Of a stretch of DNA of 64,000 nucleotides, positions 23,072 to 37,941 are shown in pieces. The DNA lies in the NCBI GenBank assembly GCA_963766985.1, contig CAVYCJ010000001.1, forward strand, positions 45,634-109,633. The letters run 5' to 3'. Position 1 is the first letter of the stretch. Every line of letters starts with the position of its first letter. A program made the position numbers and the translations under genes. Under the pieces are notes generated by a model. It was not told the origin of the DNA and made no database searches. It was given only the letters and a program-made list of their open reading frames with translations. The stretch comes from an uncultured Acidobacteriota bacterium. Its GTDB lineage: Bacteria; Acidobacteriota; Terriglobia; Acidiferrales; UBA7541.

Positions 23072-24032
23072 ATGACCTCGCCCAGCGCCAACGAGCCAGC
23101 CCCCGCCCCCCAACCCGTCCTCGCTCCCCTCACCAGCTCCGCCATCTTCCTCGTCGCCTCCATCAAGCCCGACGCCGCAAGCTACTCCACCGTCCGCGAC
23201 CTCGTCGCCGACCTCCCCGGCATCTACCGCGCCGTCGACTTCCGCCGCATCGAAGGCGGCCTCTCCTGCGTCGTCTCTTTCGGTTCCAACGCCTGGGACA
23301 AACTCTTCCCCAACAATCCCCGCCCCGCCGAACTCCACTCCTTCAAAGAACTTCGCGCCGGCGACCGCCACGCTCCCGTCCACTCCCGCCGACATCCTCT
23401 TCCATCTCCGCGCCAAGCGCATGGACCTATGCTTCGAGCTCGTCTCCCAAATCATGTCGCGCATCGGCACCGCCCTCGACTCCGTCGACGAAACCCACGG
23501 CTTCCGCTACTTCGACGATCGCGATCTCCTCGGCTTCGTGGACGGAACCGAAAATCCCCGCGGCCTTGCCGCGCTCAACGCGGCCCTCATCACCGAAGCC
23601 GAAGATCCGCAATTCGCCGCCGGAAGCTACGTGATCATCCAAAAATATCTCCACGACATGTCGAAATGGAACGCGCTTACGACCGAGCAGCAAGAACACG
23701 TCATCGGCCGACAAAAGCTTTCTGATATCGAACTCAGCGACGCCGCAAAGCCGACCAACGCCCACAGCGCCCTGACCACCATCGACGAAAACGGCAAAGA
23801 ACTGAAAATCCTTCGCGACAACATGCCCTTCGGCAAACCCGGCCAAGGAGAGTTCGGCACCTACTTCATCGGCTATAGCCGCACCCCGCGCACTACCGAA
23901 CAAATGCTCGAAAACATGTTCATCGGCCGTCCTCCCGGCAATTACGACCGCCTCCTCGACTTCAGCCGCGCCGTAACCGGCAGCCTCTTCTTCGCCCCCT
24001 CCGCCACCTTCCTGGATTCCCTCGGCGACTGA
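23072..24032 (+). pseudogene. Dyp-type (B-class, YfeX/EfeB-like) peroxidase, frame interrupted
   Basis: N-terminal half in ORF 22946..23725 (from ATG 23072: MTSPSANE...VVSFGSNAWDKLF...LHSFKELRAGDRHAPV). C-terminal half in ORF 23421..24032 (..TPADILFHLRAKRMDLCFELVSQIM...GFVDGTENP...FFAPS). The frames switch by +1 between about 23378 and 23390. Confidence 0.8.
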
Positions 24033-26781: not shown

Positions 26782-28188
26782 CTACTCCTCGGCCGCGATT
26801 TGGTATTGCTCTAACTTGCCGTCCGGCATTTCATAGGTCCACACGATCAGTTTCTCTTTCGCAAATTTGGCGGAGTACAGCCGCATCTTCATGCCTCCCC
26901 GCAATTCCTGCTTTACCTGGAAAAATTCCTCGGCGTTTCCCAGTGGTCCCAACCCACCAGCGAAATCCTTCAACGCCTGCTCGCTGAAATAGAAATTGGC
27001 ATTGTCCGTGAAGAGAGAACGATCGATCGTCCCATGCTGCAGCCCTTCGAAAATTTTTCGTGCTTGAGCAAGCTTCTCCGGAGTCGCCGGATCAGCGCTC
27101 GCGAGCAGCAAAGGCGCGATGCCGTTTGCAATCGTCCCCGAAACCTCCGAGGCATCCTGATTGGTGAGCACAACTACCGCAACGCGTTCGTCCGGAAAGA
27201 CCATATTTTCCGACGTGAAGCCCGAAACCTCGCCACTGTGCGACACCGATCGATGTCCAAAGTCCGAACGTACCTCCACGCCGAGCCCATAATTCGTTCC
27301 CAATCCGTTCTTCAGCAGGACTTCCGTTTCGAACGCTAAATAGGAAGACGGTTTCATCAATTTCTGATTGATGATCGAAATGTCCCACTTCGCCAGGTCT
27401 TCCGCTGTCATCGCGAGTTCACCGGCAGCAAAGAGCCAGCCGAAACCTTCCTTAGGCGCCAATCGCAGCGGTCCGAGAGCGTAGCGCAGATAACCGATCG
27501 GATCGGTGTCGCCGAGTTTTGCCTCGTCGATGTCGGCGACGCTTTTCATGTGGAGTGGCGCGAATATCTTCTGCTGAAGAAATTGCAGCAACGGTTGGCC
27601 GCTGGCTTTCTCAATGATTAGCCCGGCGATCACATAGTTCGTATTGCTGTACTGCCATTTCGTTCCGGGCTCAAAATCCAGCGGTTTGCGCGCCCAATCG
27701 TCCAGAATCTTCCGTGCGTTGGTCGGCTTCAACATCGAGGGCATCACATAATCTTGCGGCCAGTAGTCTTGATACCCGGACGTGTGCGAAAGAAGCTGGC
27801 GAATCGTCACTTCGTTGGCTCGGGTTAGGTCGGGAAGAAATTTGCCGACCTTATCGTCGAGCGAAAGCTTTCCTTGCTCCTGCAAAAGCAGAATGGCCGC
27901 GGCCGTGAACTGCTTGCTGTTCGAGCCGATGCTGTAACGCATTTCGGCCGCCGCCGGTACCGCGGGATCAAGCCGCGCATTTCCGTACGCGTGCAGATAA
28001 ACAATCTGCCCATCCTTTACCACTGCGACCGATGCGCTGGGCACGCCAGTCTTGGCGAGCGCCTCCGTGGCTACCTTGTCGATCTTTTGCTGCATGTCCG
28101 GCGGTACCTGGCTCTGCGCATTCGCATTAGTGAAGCCGGCCGCCAGAAGCAACATCAGAATGTGGAATCGTTTCATGACACCTTCCAT
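26782..28188 (-). CDS. Serine hydrolase, beta-lactamase/PBP4* fold (class C-like)
   Basis: Signal peptide MKRFHILMLLLAAGFTNANA. S-x-x-K motif in YSIGSNSKQFTAAAILLL. A Y-x-N-like YSNTNY follows. Confidence 0.85.
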   Translation of the reverse strand: MEGVMKRFHILMLLLAAGFTNANAQSQVPPDMQQKIDKVATEALAKTGVPSASVAVVKDGQIVYLHAYGNARLDPAVPAAAEMRYSIGSNSKQFTAAAILLLQEQGKLSLDDKVGKFLPDLTRANEVTIRQLLSHTSGYQDYWPQDYVMPSMLKPTNARKILDDWARKPLDFEPGTKWQYSNTNYVIAGLIIEKASGQPLLQFLQQKIFAPLHMKSVADIDEAKLGDTDPIGYLRYALGPLRLAPKEGFGWLFAAGELAMTAEDLAKWDISIINQKLMKPSSYLAFETEVLLKNGLGTNYGLGVEVRSDFGHRSVSHSGEVSGFTSENMVFPDERVAVVVLTNQDASEVSGTIANGIAPLLLASADPATPEKLAQARKIFEGLQHGTIDRSLFTDNANFYFSEQALKDFAGGLGPLGNAEEFFQVKQELRGGMKMRLYSAKFAKEKLIVWTYEMPDGKLEQYQIAAEE

Positions 28189-28319
28189 TCATCTCTAAGT
28201 CGCAGTAACGGAATTTGCTGTTGATTGTAGTCCGTTAGCTGCCGCAACTCAACTAAGATGCTCTCGGACTTGCTGTTCTCAATGGTTCTTCGTGGCAAGC
28301 GGAAAAAGGGAGAGAGACT

Positions 28320-28889
28320 ATGAAGCAGAAAATGACGGGAGCAGCGGGATTGGCCGGCGCGTTTGTTGCCGGCATGGTGGTGGCTACGATGTTGGGCTGG
28401 GGGCTGACCACGGCGAGGGCGAAGACGCCAGGCGCGGCGCAAACTCAGGACATTACCGTGAAGGAGGTCATCAACCCAACGGTGACGGACGCGGACATCG
28501 CCTTGCTCCGAAAAGATCTACGCGCCATGAAAATGCAAGTGGTTGGGCAGAATATGTCGCTGTCGGATGCGGAAGGCGAGAAGTTCTGGCCGATTTACAA
28601 CCATTACGTAAAGGACTTGCAGGAAGTGAACAATCAGAAATACGCCCTCCTCAAGCAGTACGCCGAGATGTGGGAGACGATGAGCGACCAGGATGCGATG
28701 ATTTACGTGCGCCACTGGCTCGAGGCCGATGGCGAGGCCCAGGCGCTCCGCTTGAAGTATGTGCCCGTGGTGAACCAGGTGTTGCCAGGACGAAAGGCCG
28801 CGACGTTTTTCCAGTTGGACCGCCGGCTAAACATGATCATCGATCTGCAATTGTTTTCGCAGATTCCGTTGGCGCACGTGAAGGAGTAG
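28320..28889 (+). CDS. Hypothetical exported or membrane-anchored protein
   Basis: 189-aa ORF with N-terminal hydrophobic span AAGLAGAFVAGMVVATMLGW. The rest is helical and charged. No family recognised. Confidence 0.4.
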   Translation: MKQKMTGAAGLAGAFVAGMVVATMLGWGLTTARAKTPGAAQTQDITVKEVINPTVTDADIALLRKDLRAMKMQVVGQNMSLSDAEGEKFWPIYNHYVKDLQEVNNQKYALLKQYAEMWETMSDQDAMIYVRHWLEADGEAQALRLKYVPVVNQVLPGRKAATFFQLDRRLNMIIDLQLFSQIPLAHVKE

Positions 28890-28991
28890 CCGCGTAGAGA
28901 TCGTGCGCGTCAGGCTCGCTGTGTTGACGCTACCCCTGAAACTTGGTAGAACGGAAGCCACTGAATACCCGCGCGTTCGTGGAGGTCAATC

Positions 28992-29168
28992 ATGGATAGC
29001 CAAAACCCAGGCGAAGCAAATCCCCTAAAAGAAGAGTCGGTGATCGCCAACGCAGAAGCCGCTCCGAAGGAACTCCCCGACGACGACCTGAAATCGGTGA
29101 CCGGCGGCCTCGGTTCGAAGCCCAGCGAAGCGCTGGGATCCGCCGCGGTTTGCATCAGTCAGCTGTAA
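28992..29168 (+). CDS. Small peptide A (58 aa) with double-glycine-type leader; candidate precursor or pheromone peptide
   Basis: Absent from the ORF track because it is under 60 aa. GGAGG (28981..28985) lies 6 nt before ATG 28992. My translation: MDSQNPGEANPLKEESVIANAEAAPKELPDDDLKSVTGG|LGSKPSEALGSAAVCISQL, stop TAA 29166..29168. Confidence 0.55.
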   Translation: MDSQNPGEANPLKEESVIANAEAAPKELPDDDLKSVTGGLGSKPSEALGSAAVCISQL

Positions 29169-29235
29169 ATTCGCTTCCGCCGTCAAAACGTATCTCTCGA
29201 CCGCTTGGCCCCGGCGGCCTCAGCGTATTGCTTAA

Positions 29236-31326
29236 GTGTCCGACAACTCCCGACATGAGTGGGTCGTAGGTCCGTTTCATCCGGACAACGAACTCCCCTC
29301 GCGCACCCCGCCCGCCGAACACCTCGAAATCAACGCGCATCGCAACCTGCGCGGCCCCTACACTTCGGCAATCGGAATCGTTCTTCGGCTTCTGGAACAT
29401 CCATCGATCGCCAAAATCGAAGATCTCTTCCGCCGGCGGCAACGGACGCTTCTACTCGTCTGTCCGGAATTAGCGAATTCCCATCCGGTCTCGCCCGAAG
29501 TTCGCAAATGGCTCACCTTATCTGGGGAAGGGAATCCGTCCTCACGTACGCTTAAGCTGGCTCACGGCCTGACCGACTTCATCCTCGACTGCGCTGCGCA
29601 TCTGAACTCTCAAGCGCCTCTCGTTCTATCGATCGATAATGTAGACTTCGCCGATCCTCTGGATCAGGAATTCTTGGCCGTTCTGCTTCGCCGCGCTCAT
29701 CCCGATCAACTCAGGATAAGAATTCGAACGTCATCGGACCGCCTCAGCGACGACCAACTTCGTTCGGCCGTACAGAAATTTGCATCCATAAGACATCTGC
29801 AATCGTCCCAGCAGGATTCCCTCTCTTCCAAGCAATATTCGCCCCCACCGAACATCTCCGCCTCGCGAAGAAATACGTCTGGTCGGACTGCACATCCAAC
29901 GACCCATCCCTCACGTCTTCCTACGCCGCCATAAACGCTGACGACCGCCGACTGCTGCATCAAGAACGACTCGCCGAACTTCAGTCACTCGGCCAAACGT
30001 CTTCTTCGCTAGGGGCTATCCCTTTTCACTGTGAACAGGCTGGCGACGATCCGTTCCCACTTCTCGCCGCCTCGGTGCATTGCATGCACGTCGCATTCTA
30101 CGAGGCAGCTCTGGACTGGGCAGTCCGCGGCCGCCGGATGCTCGCTTCCTCGGACCAAAGCAAACTGAGCAACGACCTCAGCCGCAACATTCTCTTCTCG
30201 TTGCTGTTACTGGAGCGTCTCGACGAGTTAGAGACGGTTTGCGCGCGGAATCTTGAGCGGAGCAACGATCCCGCCCTGCTCGCCCACACTACCTACGCCA
30301 AAGCGATCCTCGCGGCCCGCCTCTACGAACCATCAAGGCGCGACTATGCCGCCGCTCGAACCTGGATCGAGAAGTCCTTGGCCTTCACCGAAATGCTCCC
30401 AACGTCCGAGACTCGTGCGGTAAACATCGCGTTCTTGCGCAATACGATGGCTTTGGTGGAAATGCGCACGCGGCAACCTGGACACCGCCCTCCAACTTCT
30501 GTCCGATTCTCTTCAGTTCATGGCCACCGAAGCTCCGGCCAAATTCGAATCGGAATGCGCGATCCTTCTTCACAATCGTGCGCGGCTTCACACCAAACGC
30601 AACGAGCTGCCGAAAGCCATTGACGACCTCACGACTCTCCTCCGCCACCAGCCAGGCAACTACGAAAGCTATTTCGACCGCGGCGTTCTGCGGCAGCGAT
30701 TGGGCCATACGGAGGAAGCAATCCGGGACTTCGACGCCGCCATCGAATGGAGTCCACCCGATTCCGACGCCCACTTCAATCGCGCCCAGGCCTTGCTTTC
30801 ACTCGGCCGGGACGACCAAGCGCTGGCAGATTACACGCGAGTGCTCGAACTCCACCCGGCTCACATCGAAGCCCTGACCGATCGCGCTCGCCTCCTTTAC
30901 GCGCAAGGGAAACTAAACGCCGCTCGCTCCGACGTAAACGCCGCGCTTCTTCTATCGCCGTCGAGCGCGAGACTCTTGTGCATCTCCGGATTGCTGGATC
31001 TGAAAAGTCAGAATCTTGAACAAGCTTTCGAGCTCTTCACCAAGGCGATGGAAGCCGACTCTTCGCTCCCCGATGCTTGGGCCAACCGGGCAACCGTCCT
31101 TTTCAAGCAGGGAAAGTTCGAACAGGCGGGTCTCGACCTCAGTCGGGCACTTTCGCTCCGCGAGGATTCCGAGACCTTCTACAACCGCGGTCGATGTTTC
31201 GAGATGCAGAAGAAATGGTCCCAGGCGGCCGCCGACTATTCGCGCGCTCTCCAGTTAGTCAGGGGCGATGACAGTCATATCCGACGCCATTTGGCTGTGT
31301 GCCGGCAAGCGGAGATAGTTCGCTAA
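29236..31326 (+). pseudogene. Large (~696 aa) protein: P-loop-less STAND/AAA_16-like N-terminal region plus TPR array; two frame breaks
   Basis: Three ORFs (29236..29934, 30075..30623, 30520..31326) join. The first join, ..SSKQYSPP|TEHLRLAKKYVWSDC.., needs one C added to the C5 run at 29842..29846. The second, ..ALVEMRT|GNLDTALQLLSDSLQFMATEAP.., needs 1 nt skipped at about 30468..30471. The C-terminal half carries at least 6 TPR units (e.g. YFDRGVLRQRLGHTEEAIRDFDAAIEWSP). LVLSIDNVDFADPLDQEFLAVLLRR resembles a Walker-B/AAA_16 segment, but there is no GxxxxGK[ST]. Confidence 0.65.
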
Positions 31327-31368
31327 ACAATCAAAATACGCCGCTCGGCACCCGGTCGCGGTGCTGAC

Positions 31369-32511
31369 TCACGCATTGACGATCGGAAGGAGATCATTTT
31401 CGTTCGAACATCCCTGCAAGATTCCAAAATCGACCATCTTGCGCACTAGGTTCATATCCAGCCGGGTGTTCTCTTTCGTAAGAATCGCTTCGAGCGCTTC
31501 TTCCGTGGGCCTGCCATCGAAATACCGGAGAGCTCGCGCAAGCTTGTCTGGCATTTGCAACGGGTCATATCCACTGTAACCGACAATTCGGAAGCCGCCG
31601 TCCCCAACGCCCGTGAAATGGATTCGGCCCAGACGCAGTCTCTCGGGGAGGGCTGTCGATTCCAGGTTTTTGTACGCATCCGACAGCATTTGCGCGAGAA
31701 TTCGCACTCGCGGGCCTGATACCTGTTCGACCTGTTCCCATGTCAACGGGTCCACAAGCCGCGCACACGCACGATAGAATTCCGCTTCGCGCCCGACCCA
31801 ATCGCCCCAAAGCTTGCGGTACAAACCCCAGTTCATCTCCCCGCCTAGCTCCGAGACGTCGGGCGATGACCGTGCCGACATGGCAAAGACTTCCGCCGAA
31901 CCTGCCTTCAGTTCCTCCATGCACCACAAGCCGAGCTCACATTCGACAATCTGGAGAAGTTTGTCGGCCACCTTCCAGAAGTTGTGCCCTGTACCGCCAC
32001 GAACATGTTTGCAGAACCAGGTAGAACATACCGCTGGCCGGTGTTTCCAGATGCCACAGCCACCATTGGAGTCGAGAAATTGGCAGCGCAGTTCCGGAGC
32101 GCGCCCGAACACGTTCGGGGTGCTGTGGTACAACAAGTCGAAGACGGATCCAGGCCCAGCCCAACGCGGAGAAATCGCTACTCTTCGCGCGATACGTCGC
32201 TCAAGCTCTTCCCGCCCCGCTTGAATCGAGGGGTCCTCTTCCATCAGGATGCGCCCAGCCAGAAAGTTTGGAATGTGTGGTTGGAACGCACAACATTTCG
32301 TCGCGGGATGAAAAAATACGCCTTCCGCAGGCCCGTCGGGAGACGGGAGCATCGCGCAATTTTGGCAGGTAGCTCGAGTTTCGGCGGGAATAGGGCCGCC
32401 AGTCACGGTGCGGAGCCAGGGCGCGTAAAGAGGGGGGAGGGCAGCTTCGAGCATCATATTCGGTTCATATTTGCGGGAGAGATGATTCCACCGCTGGCGA
32501 AGCGAATACAA
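31369..32511 (-). CDS. YkgJ/FliB-type (CxxC...CC) cysteine-cluster protein with C-terminal PqqD-like (RRE-like) domain
   Basis: 380 aa. Cysteines C49-x2-C52, C73-C74 and C143-x8-C152-x9-C162-x4-C167 (CQFLDSNGGCGIWKHRPAVCSTWFC) match the Zn/Fe-chelating CxxCxxCC family pattern. Residues ~291-366 (RLRLGRIHFT..GFRIVGY..DPLQMPDKLARALRYFDGRPTEEALEAILTKENTRLDMNLVRKMVDFGILQ) have the 3-strand plus 3-helix pattern of PqqD. Confidence 0.55.
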   Translation of the reverse strand: MYSLRQRWNHLSRKYEPNMMLEAALPPLYAPWLRTVTGGPIPAETRATCQNCAMLPSPDGPAEGVFFHPATKCCAFQPHIPNFLAGRILMEEDPSIQAGREELERRIARRVAISPRWAGPGSVFDLLYHSTPNVFGRAPELRCQFLDSNGGCGIWKHRPAVCSTWFCKHVRGGTGHNFWKVADKLLQIVECELGLWCMEELKAGSAEVFAMSARSSPDVSELGGEMNWGLYRKLWGDWVGREAEFYRACARLVDPLTWEQVEQVSGPRVRILAQMLSDAYKNLESTALPERLRLGRIHFTGVGDGGFRIVGYSGYDPLQMPDKLARALRYFDGRPTEEALEAILTKENTRLDMNLVRKMVDFGILQGCSNENDLLPIVNA

Positions 32512-32577
32512 ATCACCGGGCGGGCCGCTGTTGACTGCGGCCCGCCCAGGTGTTGATATCCGGTATTTTCGGCTGTC

Positions 32578-32793
32578 TTAGGAAGGCAGTCCGTCTTCGA
32601 GCAACGAGCCGTCGAGGGTGTCGCCTTGAGCGATCGACCCGCCAGTCGTTGTTTTTGGAACTGAGGTGAGCGCCTTTTGTTTCACGACTACGGAGATGCC
32701 TTGCCCGCCCTGAACTCCACTGAGCTGATCTTCGTTCAACTCGGTGACTTCACCTGCGTGTTCCGAACCGGGCTTGATGGTTTCGTCAGACAT
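32578..32793 (-). CDS. Small peptide B (71 aa) with double-glycine-type leader; candidate precursor peptide
   Basis: MSDETIKPGSEHAGEVTELNEDQLSGVQGG|QGISVVVKQKALTSVPKTTTGGSIAQGDTLDGSLLEDGLPS. It lies 66 nt upstream of the Cys-cluster gene on the same strand. A purine-rich GAGAAAGAGAG precedes the ATG. Confidence 0.6.
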   Translation of the reverse strand: MSDETIKPGSEHAGEVTELNEDQLSGVQGGQGISVVVKQKALTSVPKTTTGGSIAQGDTLDGSLLEDGLPS

Positions 32794-32908
32794 ATTTTTC
32801 TCTCTTTCTCACACCGCCTCCGTCGAGACGGCGATCGTTACCGCTAAGTCCGAATTTTCCGGCATCGTGGGGACGCCCGACCGCGGGCACATTCCGGAAT
32901 CGGCCCGG

Positions 32909-32937
32909 AATATAGTCAATTGCCCTGTTTATGTAAA
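32909..32937 (-). promoter_or_regulatory. Sigma-70-like promoter for the peptide B / Cys-cluster operon
   Basis: On the minus strand: TTTACA (32937..32932), a 17-nt spacer, then TATATT (32914..32909). This is about 115 nt upstream of ATG 32793. Confidence 0.45.
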
Positions 32938-33098
32938 GACGTGTTTCTTAATAGCCGTCTCGGCGAAGCCCTCCGGCCGAACCTTGCCCGCGCATACACT
33001 GCCGTAAGGTTTCCCCCGTACTCGACCGATTGAGCCTCCGGCCTACGGCTTCCGCGACCACCAAAATAGACCTATCCGGTCAAATCGTCTGTCGGAAC

Positions 33099-33761
33099 TC
33101 AACTCGTCGGCGGAGGAGGTTGGAAAATAAACGCTACGACGATCTTTGACGTGACCGGCCTTCCGCGCACGGTGGCTGCTTGGAAGCGCCAGTTTTTCAA
33201 AGCTTCCTGCGCAAAGTGATTGAAGCCGGCCATTTCGTGCAGCACGTTGACATTCTTGACGTTTCCCGCGCTGTCCACCGTTGCTTGGAGTAACACCGAT
33301 CCCGAAGCAACGCTATTGATCGGATAGTCTGCATAAGCGAACGACAAGATGCCCACCGGAGAACCGTCCTCACCGCTGTCATCTGACGGAGCAGACGGAA
33401 TCACGGGCGTGAAATCTTTGACCGGCGCCGCTCCGAAACCCAGGTAATTCGTTGGCCGGTATACGAATGCGACGGTCATGCGAGAAGCTCTGGCCTTGCG
33501 GCCCTCAAGGGCTGGCCGGAATTTCCAATTCTGAACGGCAGATTTTACGTCCCCAAGCATCGCTCCTGGATTTCTGAGAGCTTCGATTCCCTGGATGCTC
33601 CCGTCGTCGCCAACACTGACGTCCACGACAAATAATCCATCGAGGATGACGTTATATGGCGCATACGCGTCGCCAGCCGAAATCACTTCGGGAGGGCTGT
33701 AGGCTTGCTGAGCCGAGACACAAGGCCACAAGAAAAGCCCCAGCAAAAGAAGTCTTCTCAT
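33099..33761 (-). CDS. Secreted protein with two TonB-C-like domains
   Basis: Signal peptide MRRLLLLGLFLWPCVSAQ. Two repeats of the TonB C-terminal pattern (..VDVSVGDDGSIQGIEALR...AVQNWKFRPA and ..LQATVDSAGNVKNVNVLH...EALKNWRFQAAT). Confidence 0.6.
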   Translation of the reverse strand: MRRLLLLGLFLWPCVSAQQAYSPPEVISAGDAYAPYNVILDGLFVVDVSVGDDGSIQGIEALRNPGAMLGDVKSAVQNWKFRPALEGRKARASRMTVAFVYRPTNYLGFGAAPVKDFTPVIPSAPSDDSGEDGSPVGILSFAYADYPINSVASGSVLLQATVDSAGNVKNVNVLHEMAGFNHFAQEALKNWRFQAATVRGRPVTSKIVVAFIFQPPPPTS

Positions 33762-36230: not shown

Positions 36231-37848
36231 CTAGACGCCGGTGATTTCGCCGGCGTCATCTGTATCGATGTTCAGTGCGCGCGATTGTTTTGGCAGCCCC
36301 GGCATCAAGACCATGTTGCCGGAAATGATGACCACGAATTTTGCTCCCGCCGAAAGCGCAGCATCGGAAATGTGCAAGGTCCAACCGGTCGGGGCGCCGG
36401 GGAGTTTCGGATCGTCGGTGAAACTGTACTGCGTCTTCGCAATGCATACTGGCAACTTCGCGTAGCCCCACTGTGAAAATCGTTCAAGCTTCGATTCGGC
36501 CTGATCTGTAAAACTCACATTCGCCGCGCCGTAAATTTTCGTGGCAACCTTCCGGATTTTTTCCACCAAGCGAATCCGACAAGTCGTACGCCGCCGTCAC
36601 CACCGGCTCCGGATTTTGCGCCATCACTTCGACCACTAATTCCGCAAGATCTTTCGCGCCAGGCCCGCCCTTTGTGAACGCCTCCGACATCGCCGTCCGC
36701 GTTCCATGCTCTGCTGCATAATCCGCCAAATATTTCAGATCGGCGTCGGTGTCTTGCGGAAAACGATTCACCGCAACGATCGTCGGCAATCCGTACGACT
36801 TCATGTTGTCGATGTGCTTGCCCAGATTGGGCAATCCTTTGTCGAGATCGCCGCCGCCTTGCGTGCGGATGCTCTGCACCGTCGTAACAACAACCGCGAC
36901 AGCGGGCTTCGTTCCGGATTGCTGCATCACGATATCGAGGAATTTTTCGGCGCCGAGATCTGCGGCGAATCCCGCTTCGTTCACGACGTAGTCGGCTAGA
37001 CGCAGCGCCATTTTCTGCGAGACGACGCTGCTGGTGCCGTGGGCAATATTTGCGAACGGACCTGTGTGGACAAACGCAGGCGTTCCATCGGAGGTTTGCG
37101 CCAGATTGGGCAGGATCGCTTCGGAGAGCAGCGCCATCATGCCTCCGACTGCATGGAGATCTCCGGCACGCACAGGCTTTCCTTCGCGTGTCATGCCGAT
37201 GACGATGGATTCCAGTCGATGGCGCAGGTCTTTGCGATTTTCGGCGAGCGCGAGAATCGCCATGATTTCGCTGGCGGCCGTAATGACGAATGCCGTCTTG
37301 CGATTCGCGCCGTCGCGCTTGCCGCCGACATCGATTTGAATACGACGCAGCGCGCGATCGTTCATGTCCATGGCGCGCGGCCAGGTGATCTGATTGGGAT
37401 CGAGATTGAGTTCGTTGCCGTGGAACAAATGCGCGTCGATCAACGCCGCAAGAAGATTGTTGGCGCTGGAAATTGCGTGGAAGTCACCGTGGAAATGCAG
37501 ATTGATTTTCGCGGCAGGCTCGATTTGCGAGAGGCCTCCGCCCGCTGCGCCGCCTTTCATACCGAAGACGGGCCCAAGAGACGGCTCGCGCGACGTTATC
37601 ACTGCGCGTTTACCGATGTGCGCGAGTCCTTGCGTCAATCCGATCGACGTTACCGTTTTGCCTTCGCCGGAAACAGTCGGCGTCGTCGCGGTGACGAGAA
37701 TCATTCTTCCGCGCGGCTTTGCGAACGCTGGATCGTTCAGAAGTTCGAGGCGAATCTTTGCGCCGTACGAACTCACTTGTTCGACGTATTGATCGGGGAT
37801 TTCGAGCTTTTTCGCGACGTCCTTAATCGGGAGGAGTGTTTTGGCCAT
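36231..37848 (-). pseudogene. fhs: Formate--tetrahydrofolate ligase, frame interrupted near the 3' end
   Basis: From ATG 37848: MAKTLLPIKDVAKKLEIPDQYVE...TPTVSGEGKTVTSIGL...; the C-terminus continues in ORF 36231..36569 (VEKIRKVATKIYGAANVSFT...PGLPK). Junction: ..AAYDLSDSL|VEKIRKV. One extra nt lies near 36563..36567. Confidence 0.85.
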
Positions 37849-37941
37849 GGGGAATAGATGTGTAGGATGGGCCTCCGGTAGCAATGTAGCACAGCGATGG
37901 AGATGCTTCGATTGCGAGAGCGCCGAAGCCTGGAGTGACTG

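Follow-up and report, generated by a model that had tools for sequence, protein, structure and literature searches.

Within the 64-kb stretch of DNA from an uncultured acidobacterium that was analysed here (contig CAVYCJ010000001.1; the window, in what follows, means this stretch at its full length of 64,000 nucleotides (nt)), a short open reading frame (ORF) on the forward strand, which we call peptide A, is almost certainly a genuine protein-coding gene for a precursor of 58 amino acids (aa), as judged by comparison with its homologues. Directly downstream lies the gene of a partner protein of ~700 aa that carries a tetratricopeptide repeat (TPR) solenoid, and the two genes recur together from Acidobacteriota to Alphaproteobacteria. 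The reading that we prefer, with a probability of roughly 0.6, is that peptide A would be an exported peptide with a double-glycine (GG) leader and that the TPR protein would be its cognate binding partner, acting as a switch or an escort. GG-leader peptides and their transporters are known; what would be new, on the sequence comparisons given below, is the strict pairing with an AAA-like/TPR partner of ~700 aa. The features of the locus are as follows.

28992-29168, forward strand: peptide A ORF (ATG at 28992, 58 codons, TAA at 29166-29168)
28981-28985, forward strand: Shine-Dalgarno sequence GGAGG, 6 nt 5' of the peptide A ATG
28924-28952, forward strand: putative sigma-70-type promoter of peptide A (-35 TTGACG at 28924-28929, 17-nt spacer, -10 TAGAAC at 28947-28952)
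28992-29108, forward strand: predicted leader of peptide A, 39 codons, ending E-L-P-D-D-D-L-K-S-V-T-G-G
29109-29168, forward strand: predicted core of peptide A, LGSKPSEALGSAAVCISQL, plus stop; 19 aa, unmodified monoisotopic mass 1829.96 Da
28910-29155, reverse strand: antisense ORF of 81 aa, overlapping peptide A
29236-31326, forward strand: partner gene, ~697 codons, present here as three ORFs (divergent domain resembling AAA+ proteins and signal transduction ATPases with numerous domains (STAND), helical arm, TPR solenoid)

Coding evidence for peptide A

A preliminary description of this region, made from the letters alone, had placed a 58-codon forward frame with GGAGG 6 nt before its ATG beneath an antisense ORF of 81 aa, and all three were found where it had put them. 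The acidic, leader-like segment, the GG and the 19-aa tail with a single Cys were likewise present as described, the predicted product being MDSQNPGEANPLKEESVIANAEAAPKELPDDDLKSVTGG/LGSKPSEALGSAAVCISQL (the slash marks the predicted cleavage point after GG) with the junction ...KELPDDDLKSVTGG/LGSKPSEALGSAAVCISQL. The frame had also been called unannotated, which does not hold for the public databases: NCBI/JGI/ENA records contain exactly this 58-aa sequence as a called gene ('hypothetical protein'), and it is also found on two other metagenome contigs.

By itself, the sequence of the window gave moderate support to peptide A. A regular expression for the leader matched 2 ORFs against 0.67 expected (64 kb, 100 Markov simulations), and 1 ORF against 0.09 expected when a Shine-Dalgarno sequence was also required; ORFs of at least 30 aa are common here, with 151 within 12 kb. 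The comparative evidence was decisive. A protein search with peptide A returned 11 clusters at 72-98% identity, all of 56-58 aa, among which the pattern ..L-P-x-x-D-L-K-x-V-T-G-G-L-x-S-K-x-S-E....C-x-S-Q-L was invariant, and the sole indel in a DNA alignment of six distinct close sequences was one codon. More than 25 homologues from Acidobacteriota and from alphaproteobacterial metagenome-assembled genomes (MAGs) retained the frame, start, Shine-Dalgarno sequence and stop, together with the leader ELxDDxLxxV[TS]GG and the tail C[IV]S[QK]L. The GG leader, short core and stop were all kept in homologues that had been reached independently via the neighbouring gene; these derive from Acidobacteriaceae, Candidatus Sulfotelmatobacter, other Terriglobia/Acidobacteriota, Thermoanaerobaculia and several Alphaproteobacteria MAGs, and examples of them are, as leader/core, ...DLPDDSLKAVTGG/LQSTPGGMSTAETCISQL, ...ELTDDELKSVSGG/MGSLGTFLSSLDTEGCVSKL, ...ELSEDDLQKVTGG/LASNTIARPTVDSCISKL and ...ELQDDDLQQVSGG/LAARRATDPTDPVCISKL. 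When 18 diverse homologues were aligned, M1, L28 (-12), L33 (-7), V36 (-4), G38, G39, the tail Cys and the Ser two residues on were invariant, and a GGAGG- or GGGAGG-like site stood 5-8 nt before the ATG in 8/8 homologous loci examined. A profile search with the close homologues against 1.84 billion representatives returned 8 clusters only, so that either the family is rare or the peptide is too short for detection by hidden Markov models.

The opposite reading, in which the peptide A ORF arose by chance and the locus has as its true feature either the antisense 81-aa ORF or none, draws on the antisense frame being open in most close relatives and on a wobble signal that is masked by shared third positions. 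The third codon positions of peptide A and the antisense ORF coincide, so that variation at the wobble position does not tell one frame from the other: variable third positions numbered 32 in the forward frame and 30 in the antisense frame. Because this codon-position test was uninformative, we used the ratio of nonsynonymous to synonymous substitution rates (dN/dS) and the distant homologues. The dN/dS was 0.10-0.29 in the forward frame and 0.19-0.65 in the antisense frame, and was lower in the forward frame in every informative pair. The antisense frame is interrupted by stops in two distant loci (L011 and L012; related loci are referred to by such numbers), its 81-aa product has no family match, is absent from a collection of 15 billion proteins and was never called as a gene, and it is the forward frame in which, across phyla, the start, Shine-Dalgarno sequence, leader motif, CxS tail and stop are all kept. 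With in-frame conservation across two phyla and every indel a multiple of 3, the forward frame as the gene, as first proposed, is upheld; the chance-frame reading is effectively refuted and the antisense ORF is, by the same sequence comparisons, a shadow frame of peptide A. A noncoding RNA was also considered as an explanation and set aside, there being no Rfam match at E<=1 across 28000-33500.

The preliminary description had further proposed TTGACG-17 nt-TAGAAC as a possible promoter. This element is present, carries an extended -10 TG at 28944-28945, and is conserved in five diverged loci sharing ~80-86% nt identity, in which the block TTGACGCTACCC(C/T)TGAAA(C/G)TTG(G/A)TA(G/A)AA, spanning the -35 hexamer to just beyond the -10, is invariant or nearly so. 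The DNA 5' of the -35 is unalignable among these loci, and synteny between the window and L006 picks up again at window 28912. Distant loci have analogous TTGAC(N)-17-TA..A. elements with TGn. From this conservation we infer that the element acts as the peptide A promoter; a generic promoter scan omitted it because its -10 rule demands T at position 6. The 17-nt spacer (CTACCCCTGAAACTTGG/A, window 28930-28946) is conserved to the same degree as the hexamers in the window, L001, L004, L006 and L008 and is not conserved in distant loci, and this may mean either that an operator overlaps the promoter here or simply that the loci share a recent ancestor. Upstream of the module, the DNA differs between otherwise syntenic genomes (window 26782-28889 compared with L006 6289-7548): this part of the window is occupied by a beta-lactamase-family gene and by a gene for a 189-aa protein with a hydrophobic N-terminus, and that of L006 by a HisKA_3 histidine kinase. 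The 189-aa gene likewise precedes an identical peptide A on contig L113.

Pairing of peptide A with an AAA-like/TPR protein

In the window the partner gene starts 67 nt downstream of peptide A, and in every locus with enough downstream DNA peptide A was found 50-135 nt upstream of a gene for a protein of ~690-790 aa on the same strand. The pairing held in both directions. Among loci of the Acidobacteria or Alphaproteobacteria type that were reached via the partner protein, the TPR gene followed peptide A after 50-135 nt in all 16 distinct ones, and a reverse scan of metagenomes with the peptide alignment recovered 13 A-type peptides, of which the 11 with enough downstream DNA all had the partner next; the single non-A match, a peptide with a Nif11-like leader and no Cys tail, had no partner gene following it. 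In L001, L004, L005, L006 and L008 the gene after peptide A encodes an intact 694-aa orthologue. No description of peptide A paired with a TPR partner was found in the literature by keyword or peptide-string search, and the strict pairing from Acidobacteriota to Alphaproteobacteria appears, on those searches, to be undescribed. No terminator or significant RNA structure was found between the two genes, and an attenuator or terminator at this place was rejected as a candidate (fold no better than shuffles, z = 0.97, and no covariation). Since the promoter is conserved and no terminator separates the genes, peptide A and its partner would share a joint transcript.

The partner gene of the window is broken by two compensating shifts with respect to the intact 694-aa orthologue, +2 nt at ~29833-29841 and +1 nt at ~30471. 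These shifts, the lack of an exporter within 64 kb, and the absence of the export operon that stands between the Cys-rich gene (see below) and the pair in L004 and L095 would suit a module that is a relic in this genome, its partner truly frameshifted, its exporter lost and peptide A perhaps expressed and non-functional. Other observations speak against a relic. With tblastn the partner was followed through frames 1, 3 and 1, and the shifted middle segment is stop-free and shows 86% aa identity as compared with 81% in the in-frame parts; partner genes are intact in L001 and L006, which also have no adjacent exporter; and an identical peptide A occurs on other contigs. A Dyp-type peroxidase gene at window 23084-24029, unrelated to the partner, is also split (frames 2 then 3) as compared with an intact orthologue. 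Because the shifted segment is stop-free and conserved and because the unrelated peroxidase gene is frameshifted too, assembly indel errors are, on the sequence, more likely than real decay, and we regard the relic as improbable. Overlapping same-strand ORF pairs at 4729-5817/4916-5983 and 7763-8308/7869-8771 possibly have the same cause, and an FTHFS gene at 36484-37884, apparently short (10-445 of 556 model positions), may share it.

The AlphaFold2 model of the partner (predicted local distance difference test (pLDDT) score 91.4) consists of an alpha/beta domain at residues 1-190, a helical arm at ~200-400 and the TPR solenoid at ~400-694. Pfam, NCBIfam and PDB sequence searches recognised the TPR part only, for which an OGT-type peptide-binding superhelix was closest, and a full-length Foldseek search returned TPR proteins only. 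The TPRs have 34-residue periodicity and an Asn/Arg ladder, which is not specific for peptide binding since consensus TPRs share it. For the N-terminal domain, a model built on the sequence found in the window itself (pLDDT 88) gave weak Foldseek matches to AAA+/STAND proteins, namely RuvB, ORC, RFC and MalT, all with E above 1e-3, the top TM-score being that for MalT (8bob_C, TMq 0.49). Window residues 74-156 matched AAA_16 (PF13191) at 19.7 bits and E 0.0013, below the gathering cut-off of 32.6, and the N-terminal domain also matched the AAA region of TIGR03903; the intact partner homologues gave no AAA_16 match at E<=0.01, and a profile of the first 395 aa found no solved homologue. The Walker A P-loop GxxxxGK[ST] is absent. 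In its place, the loop after the strand at 29-33 reads H-R-N-L-R-G-P-Y-T, in which H35, R36, R39, G40, Y42 and T43 are conserved in >=85% of 30 sequences (pattern H-R-x-x-R-G-x-Y-T), and a Walker-B-like NVDFADPLDQEFLAVLLRR is retained. The invariant polar residues outside the TPRs are many: H7, W9, H35, R36, R39, Y42, T43, E78, E98, D140, D143, E145, H240, R243, H263, E265 and C687. No signal peptide, transmembrane helix, helix-turn-helix (HTH) or recognisable catalytic domain was detected. The order of alpha/beta domain, helical arm and repeat sensor in the model resembles the STAND layout, and the partner is best taken as a cytoplasmic STAND-like protein with a divergent, P-loop-less AAA+ domain, an arm and a TPR solenoid. 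Membership in an anti-phage defence system was tried and rejected, as no PADLOC family matched.

The leader, the export genes and the peptide island

The leader ELPDDDLKSVTGG has hydrophobic residues at L-12, L-7 and V-4, acidic residues at D-8 to D-10 and GG at its end, so that it shows the position pattern of GG leaders, which allows Gly-Ala or Gly-Ser as well as Gly-Gly at -2/-1, and it is acidic and without a hydrophobic Sec-type signal sequence. NHLP (TIGR03793) and Nif11 (TIGR03798) models gave no match to the window peptide A, and a single homologue matched TIGR03798 in part, at its GG end, with 12.2 bits (cut-off 32.3). With the bacteriocin_sig model TIGR01847, homologues scored 16.7 (L011, which passes), 15.5 and 15.3 bits. 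On its leader and on the gene context of its homologues, peptide A is probably a GG-leader substrate of a peptidase-ABC (ATP-binding cassette) exporter. In the core, Cys54 (29151-29153) and Ser56 are invariant among homologues, with tail variants CISQL, CVSQL, CISKL(S), CVSKL, CISEL, CVSHL, CFSSD and CVSSD, and the remainder varies in sequence and in length (15-21 aa).

Known GG peptides (ComC/CSP, BlpC, class II bacteriocins and class II microcins; TIGR01847, PF10439) share with peptide A the GG end, the hydrophobic residues at -4/-7/-12 and the acid at ~-8; the 19-aa core is within the size range of GG pheromones, and C39-ABC and HlyD genes are adjacent in relatives. Peptide A differs from them in its long leader (39 aa), its hosts in Acidobacteriota and Alphaproteobacteria, the lack of a dedicated histidine kinase/response regulator pair, the obligate TPR neighbour of ~700 aa and the conserved Cys-x-Ser tail. 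Class II microcins and unmodified class II bacteriocins have leaders of ~15-20 aa and a mature toxin of several kDa, and each comes with its own small gene for immunity; their immunity proteins are small membrane proteins. An unmodified toxin of this kind, with the TPR protein as immunity factor, would fit the GG leader, the peptidase-ABC/HlyD set in relatives and the islands of several GG-leader peptides in which these loci lie. It would not fit a core of 19 aa (~1.83 kDa) that is near neutral (charge -0.2, grand average of hydropathicity 0.61) and neither amphipathic nor cationic, or a 700-aa cytoplasmic TPR protein in the place of a small membrane protein, and no small membrane immunity gene stands between peptide A and the partner. 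One-to-one pairing and a tail conserved across phyla would also be unusual for fast-evolving toxins, and we consider a bacteriocin or microcin very unlikely.

In L004, L005, L008, L009 and L010/L095 the pair lies back-to-back (divergent) with genes for HlyD, a C39-peptidase ABC protein, a second ABC protein and a cyclic nucleotide (cNMP)-binding protein, and in L012 the C39-ABC, second ABC and cNMP-binding genes are on the same strand as the pair, a few kb upstream. The export proteins of L004 score above curated cut-offs (TIGR03794 303 bits, TIGR03796 1076, TIGR03797 942); these three models describe a three-gene export set for GG-cleaved NHLP/Nif11 peptides (Haft, Basu and Mitchell 2010, PMC2887384). 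The likeness to the NHLP/Nif11 system extends to a cNMP-binding 'bacteriocin-type transport-associated' protein and to several different GG peptides per exporter. Peptide A departs from it in having no such leader domain, in having no cyclodehydratase or LanM nearby, and in its TPR partner, which is outside the described system, the account of NHLP/Nif11 export in PMC2887384 making no mention of TPR. No lanthipeptide or other maturase (LanB/C/M/KC/L, YcaO, radical SAM) of peptides that are made on the ribosome and modified after translation (RiPPs) was present among the scanned window neighbours or among the genes tabulated for related loci. Pairs without an adjoining exporter were also found in L001, L006 and L011, and because of these the exporter of the window's peptide can be encoded elsewhere in the genome. 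The cNMP-binding protein of the export operons is TIGR03896-like (133 bits, cut-off 161; L095 7795-9405 and 11160-11690, L004 720-1250, L012 3204-3707 for export-operon and cNMP coordinates), and in L095 an FHA-GAF-guanylate cyclase gene is close by, which hints that cyclic nucleotides gate peptide export.

Further downstream, the window carries a second small gene, peptide B, and a Cys-rich protein gene.

32578-32793, reverse strand: peptide B, 71 aa, GG-leader peptide, MSDETIKPGSEHAGEVTELNEDQLSGVQGG/QGISVV...GGSIAQGDTLDGSLLEDGLPS
31369-32511, reverse strand: Cys-rich protein, 380-codon ORF; homologues typically ~361 aa
32516-32549, reverse strand: 13-bp G+C-rich hairpin and T-rich tract between peptide B and the Cys-rich gene
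32909-32937, reverse strand: promoter-like site upstream of peptide B (TTTACA-17-TATATT, 10/12 matches; consensus match only)

The peptide B ORF bears ELNEDQLSGVQGG, and public records already have a called gene with exactly this sequence; homologues in L016 (two copies), L001 and L095 share the end GGSIAQGDTLDxxLxEDGLPS. Since homologues of the Cys-rich protein are ~361 aa long, the true start of its gene is probably near 32457. It matched CxxCxxCC (PF03692) at 20.6 bits, below the cut-off of 23, and a search with it returned 709 proteins at E<=1e-5, the listed ones being called 'hypothetical protein' or 'Fe-S-cluster containing protein'. The Cys-rich protein could be a peptide-modifying enzyme, and the hairpin looks like a terminator or attenuator. 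Homologues of the Cys-rich protein are encoded beside the export operon in L004 and L095, and after the TPR gene in L006. The order in L095 is pepB and Cys-rich gene, then cNMP-binding, ABC2, C39-ABC and HlyD genes, then pepA and TPR protein gene, with the peptide B homologue directly upstream of the Cys-rich homologue; the window and L006 have the same genes minus the export block (pepA, TPR, then convergent Cys-rich and pepB). The preliminary description had taken the leader motif shared with peptide B as an argument against a chance ORF, and the link stands, as B-type peptides and the Cys-rich partner recur in the peptide A neighbourhood elsewhere; because both recur in the same neighbourhood, A and B corroborate each other more strongly than by leader likeness. 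This second conserved pair was found at window 31369-32793 (reverse strand), L095 9684-11086, L097 9825-11086, L004 3-647 and L006 10299-10445, and in L097 the Cys-rich protein follows a different GG-leader peptide. Some other GG-leader cores of these islands resemble Hcp, the tube protein of type VI secretion, either in its first strand (..LxIDGIKGESQDDKHKxxIE) or in its last (..SLSLNFTKIKVDYTPQ): L004 11219-11368 (reverse), L016 485-643 (forward), L020 8645-8896 (forward) and L097 9825-9977 (forward), and in addition L004 10702-10929 (forward) and L001 13149-13325 (reverse). Their matches to Pfam T6SS_HCP are sub-threshold (positions 2-21, E 0.002, 18.9 bits, cut-off 23.5; positions 112-129, E 0.13).

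Binding partner or maturase

A scan of genomes showed that the partner family, at ~30-34% identity, extends to Chloroflexia and to many Actinomycetota (Streptomyces, Kitasatospora, Lentzea, Actinosynnema, Nonomuraea). The gene order was unlike the acidobacterial type in L013/L014 and in 61 of the 71 loci L024-L094: 1-3 copies of a gene for a 25-34-aa peptide are followed by the gene of a ~410-aa membrane protein and then by that of the TPR protein (L013-L014 and L027-L093; for example L040 4605-8112, L065 4154-7860 and L112 4424-8067). The leader of these peptides, MKKI(T/A)(V/I)RK.G..(K/R)LT, is conserved and the tail is hypervariable, usually with a Cys; one plasmid copy has a tail without Cys. 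The membrane protein has a conserved HExxH and faint matches to PqqD and M50, far below thresholds. PGAP names the peptide and membrane-protein genes 'hypothetical protein' and the partner 'tetratricopeptide repeat protein', and no NCBIfam model covers the peptide A type or the actinomycete peptide type. The operon looks like an undescribed RiPP-like or peptide-signalling cluster. Across phyla the constant set, by sequence comparison, is a small peptide, a lineage-specific protease or exporter that would take off the leader, and the AAA-like/TPR protein.

The TPR partner invites comparison with known peptide receptors. In RRNPP systems (Rap/Phr, NprR/NprX, PlcR/PapR, PrgX, Rgg/SHP, AimR/AimP) of Firmicutes, a small peptide gene stands beside the gene of a TPR-type receptor. 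By analogy, the TPR-type protein described here (solenoid ~400-694) adjoins the propeptide gene in all loci, and the conserved C-terminus of the propeptide would be the likely recognised element. The partner differs in having no HTH in Pfam or NCBIfam searches, no Rap-type phosphatase domain and an N-terminal domain of AAA+-like alpha/beta fold; the propeptide has a GG leader in place of a Sec signal, no Opp genes lie in the flanks examined, the phyla are others, and there is no sequence homology past generic TPRs. Proteins that combine STAND or AAA_16 domains with TPRs (MalT, LAL/AfsR-type regulators, the TIGR03903 TOMM kinase/cyclase fusion) share the domain order of the partner, which differs from them in lacking Walker A and any effector (no HTH, kinase or cyclase), in matches below curated thresholds and in being dedicated to the adjacent peptide. 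TPRs are also known to bind free C-terminal tails, as PEX5 does with the peroxisomal targeting signal type 1 (PTS1) -SKL and Hop/CHIP with -EEVD. Many peptide A tails end in -SKL, -SQL or -SHL beside a TPR protein, which recalls PEX5/PTS1 by analogy. The variants -SSD, -SD and -KLS set the tails apart from the PEX5 and Hop ligands, the invariant residues being Cys(-5) and Ser(-3) and not the last three, and no homology is implied; the idea of a PTS1-like -SKL tail is weakened by the -SSD and -KLS variants and is kept as an analogy only.

On the preferred reading, a sigma-70-type promoter of its own would transcribe peptide A, probably reading on into the partner gene, and the 58-aa precursor would then be made, a step for which the comparative evidence is strong. 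A C39-ABC/HlyD exporter would cut after Gly39 and release the 19-aa peptide, as the motif and the gene context suggest. The TPR protein might bind the peptide through the Cys-x-Ser tail in its TPR groove, a step suggested by the strict pairing and the fold class only, and as a peptide-responsive switch or escort it would make either export or the expression of the GG-peptide island depend on the level of the peptide. The logic of such a switch would resemble that of Rap, MalT or RRNPP proteins. A non-catalytic binder or sensor is the role that the modelled fold suggests for the partner, with a chance that we place slightly short of even. We favour the sensor or escort because the architecture is STAND-type, no catalytic domain is detectable and the pair is divergent from the export operon, as regulators often are.

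Several observations weigh against this reading of an exported peptide and its binding partner. The window leader scores 14.0 bits with TIGR01847, short of the cut-off of 15.7, in a model of just 15 positions. No exporter, HlyD or cNMP-binding homologue was found in the 64-kb window (Pfam on ten of its longer ORFs, and tblastn with the export proteins of L004), and no peptide importer is evident nearby. The partner has lost its P-loop, no output domain (DNA-binding, enzymatic or of another kind) was detected in it, and its double frameshift could mean that the module is decaying in this genome. The conserved leader, hypervariable cores, multi-copy precursors and dedicated protease of the actinomycete relatives, and likewise the invariant Cys-x-Ser of the core, look at least as RiPP-like as they look like signalling.

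These last points lead to the alternative of a new RiPP class, with peptide A as precursor and the ~700-aa partner, alone or with the Cys-rich protein, as maturase of the invariant Cys/Ser; the TPR groove would hold the tail, and Cys and/or Ser would be modified ahead of leader removal by the transporter. In an otherwise variable core these two residues are the sole invariant ones, the partner has many invariant polar residues outside its TPRs, and an actinomycete operon with peptide copies and an HExxH membrane protein follows typical RiPP cluster logic, M50 proteases being known in RiPP pathways (PMC10885120). Against it, no catalytic domain of the partner was recognised by Pfam, NCBIfam, PDB sequence search or Foldseek, its loop for nucleotide binding is degenerate, Cys is missing from at least one actinomycete core, and the PqqD and M50 matches are far under thresholds. 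AAA_16 + TPR architectures are those of signalling proteins and not of tailoring enzymes. We hold a RiPP class to be rather unlikely, though the foremost of the alternatives, and a sensor or regulator role of the partner to be more likely than a maturase role.

The two gene orders may, as a tentative proposal that we hold to be less than probable, be two branches of one cross-phylum family of peptide-protein modules: a Gram-negative branch comprising peptide A and its partner, with GG leader and peptidase-ABC in Acidobacteriota and Alphaproteobacteria, and a branch with MKKI..RK leader and HExxH protease in Actinomycetota and Chloroflexi. Under that proposal the family would stand either for peptide signalling with a cytoplasmic TPR receptor outside Firmicutes or for a RiPP class in which a pseudo-AAA/TPR enzyme acts on a C-terminal Cys. 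Neither of the two peptides is named by a curated family, nor is the partner, and dozens of Streptomyces, Kitasatospora and Lentzea genomes have the same partner family next to another small-peptide system. Small peptide genes can be overlooked when only the longest ORF per locus is listed. If the partner is a maturase, the module would represent new RiPP chemistry on a C-terminal Cys; if it is a receptor, the module would be a candidate for peptide signalling in abundant, poorly understood soil bacteria, in which peptide communication is essentially uncharted.

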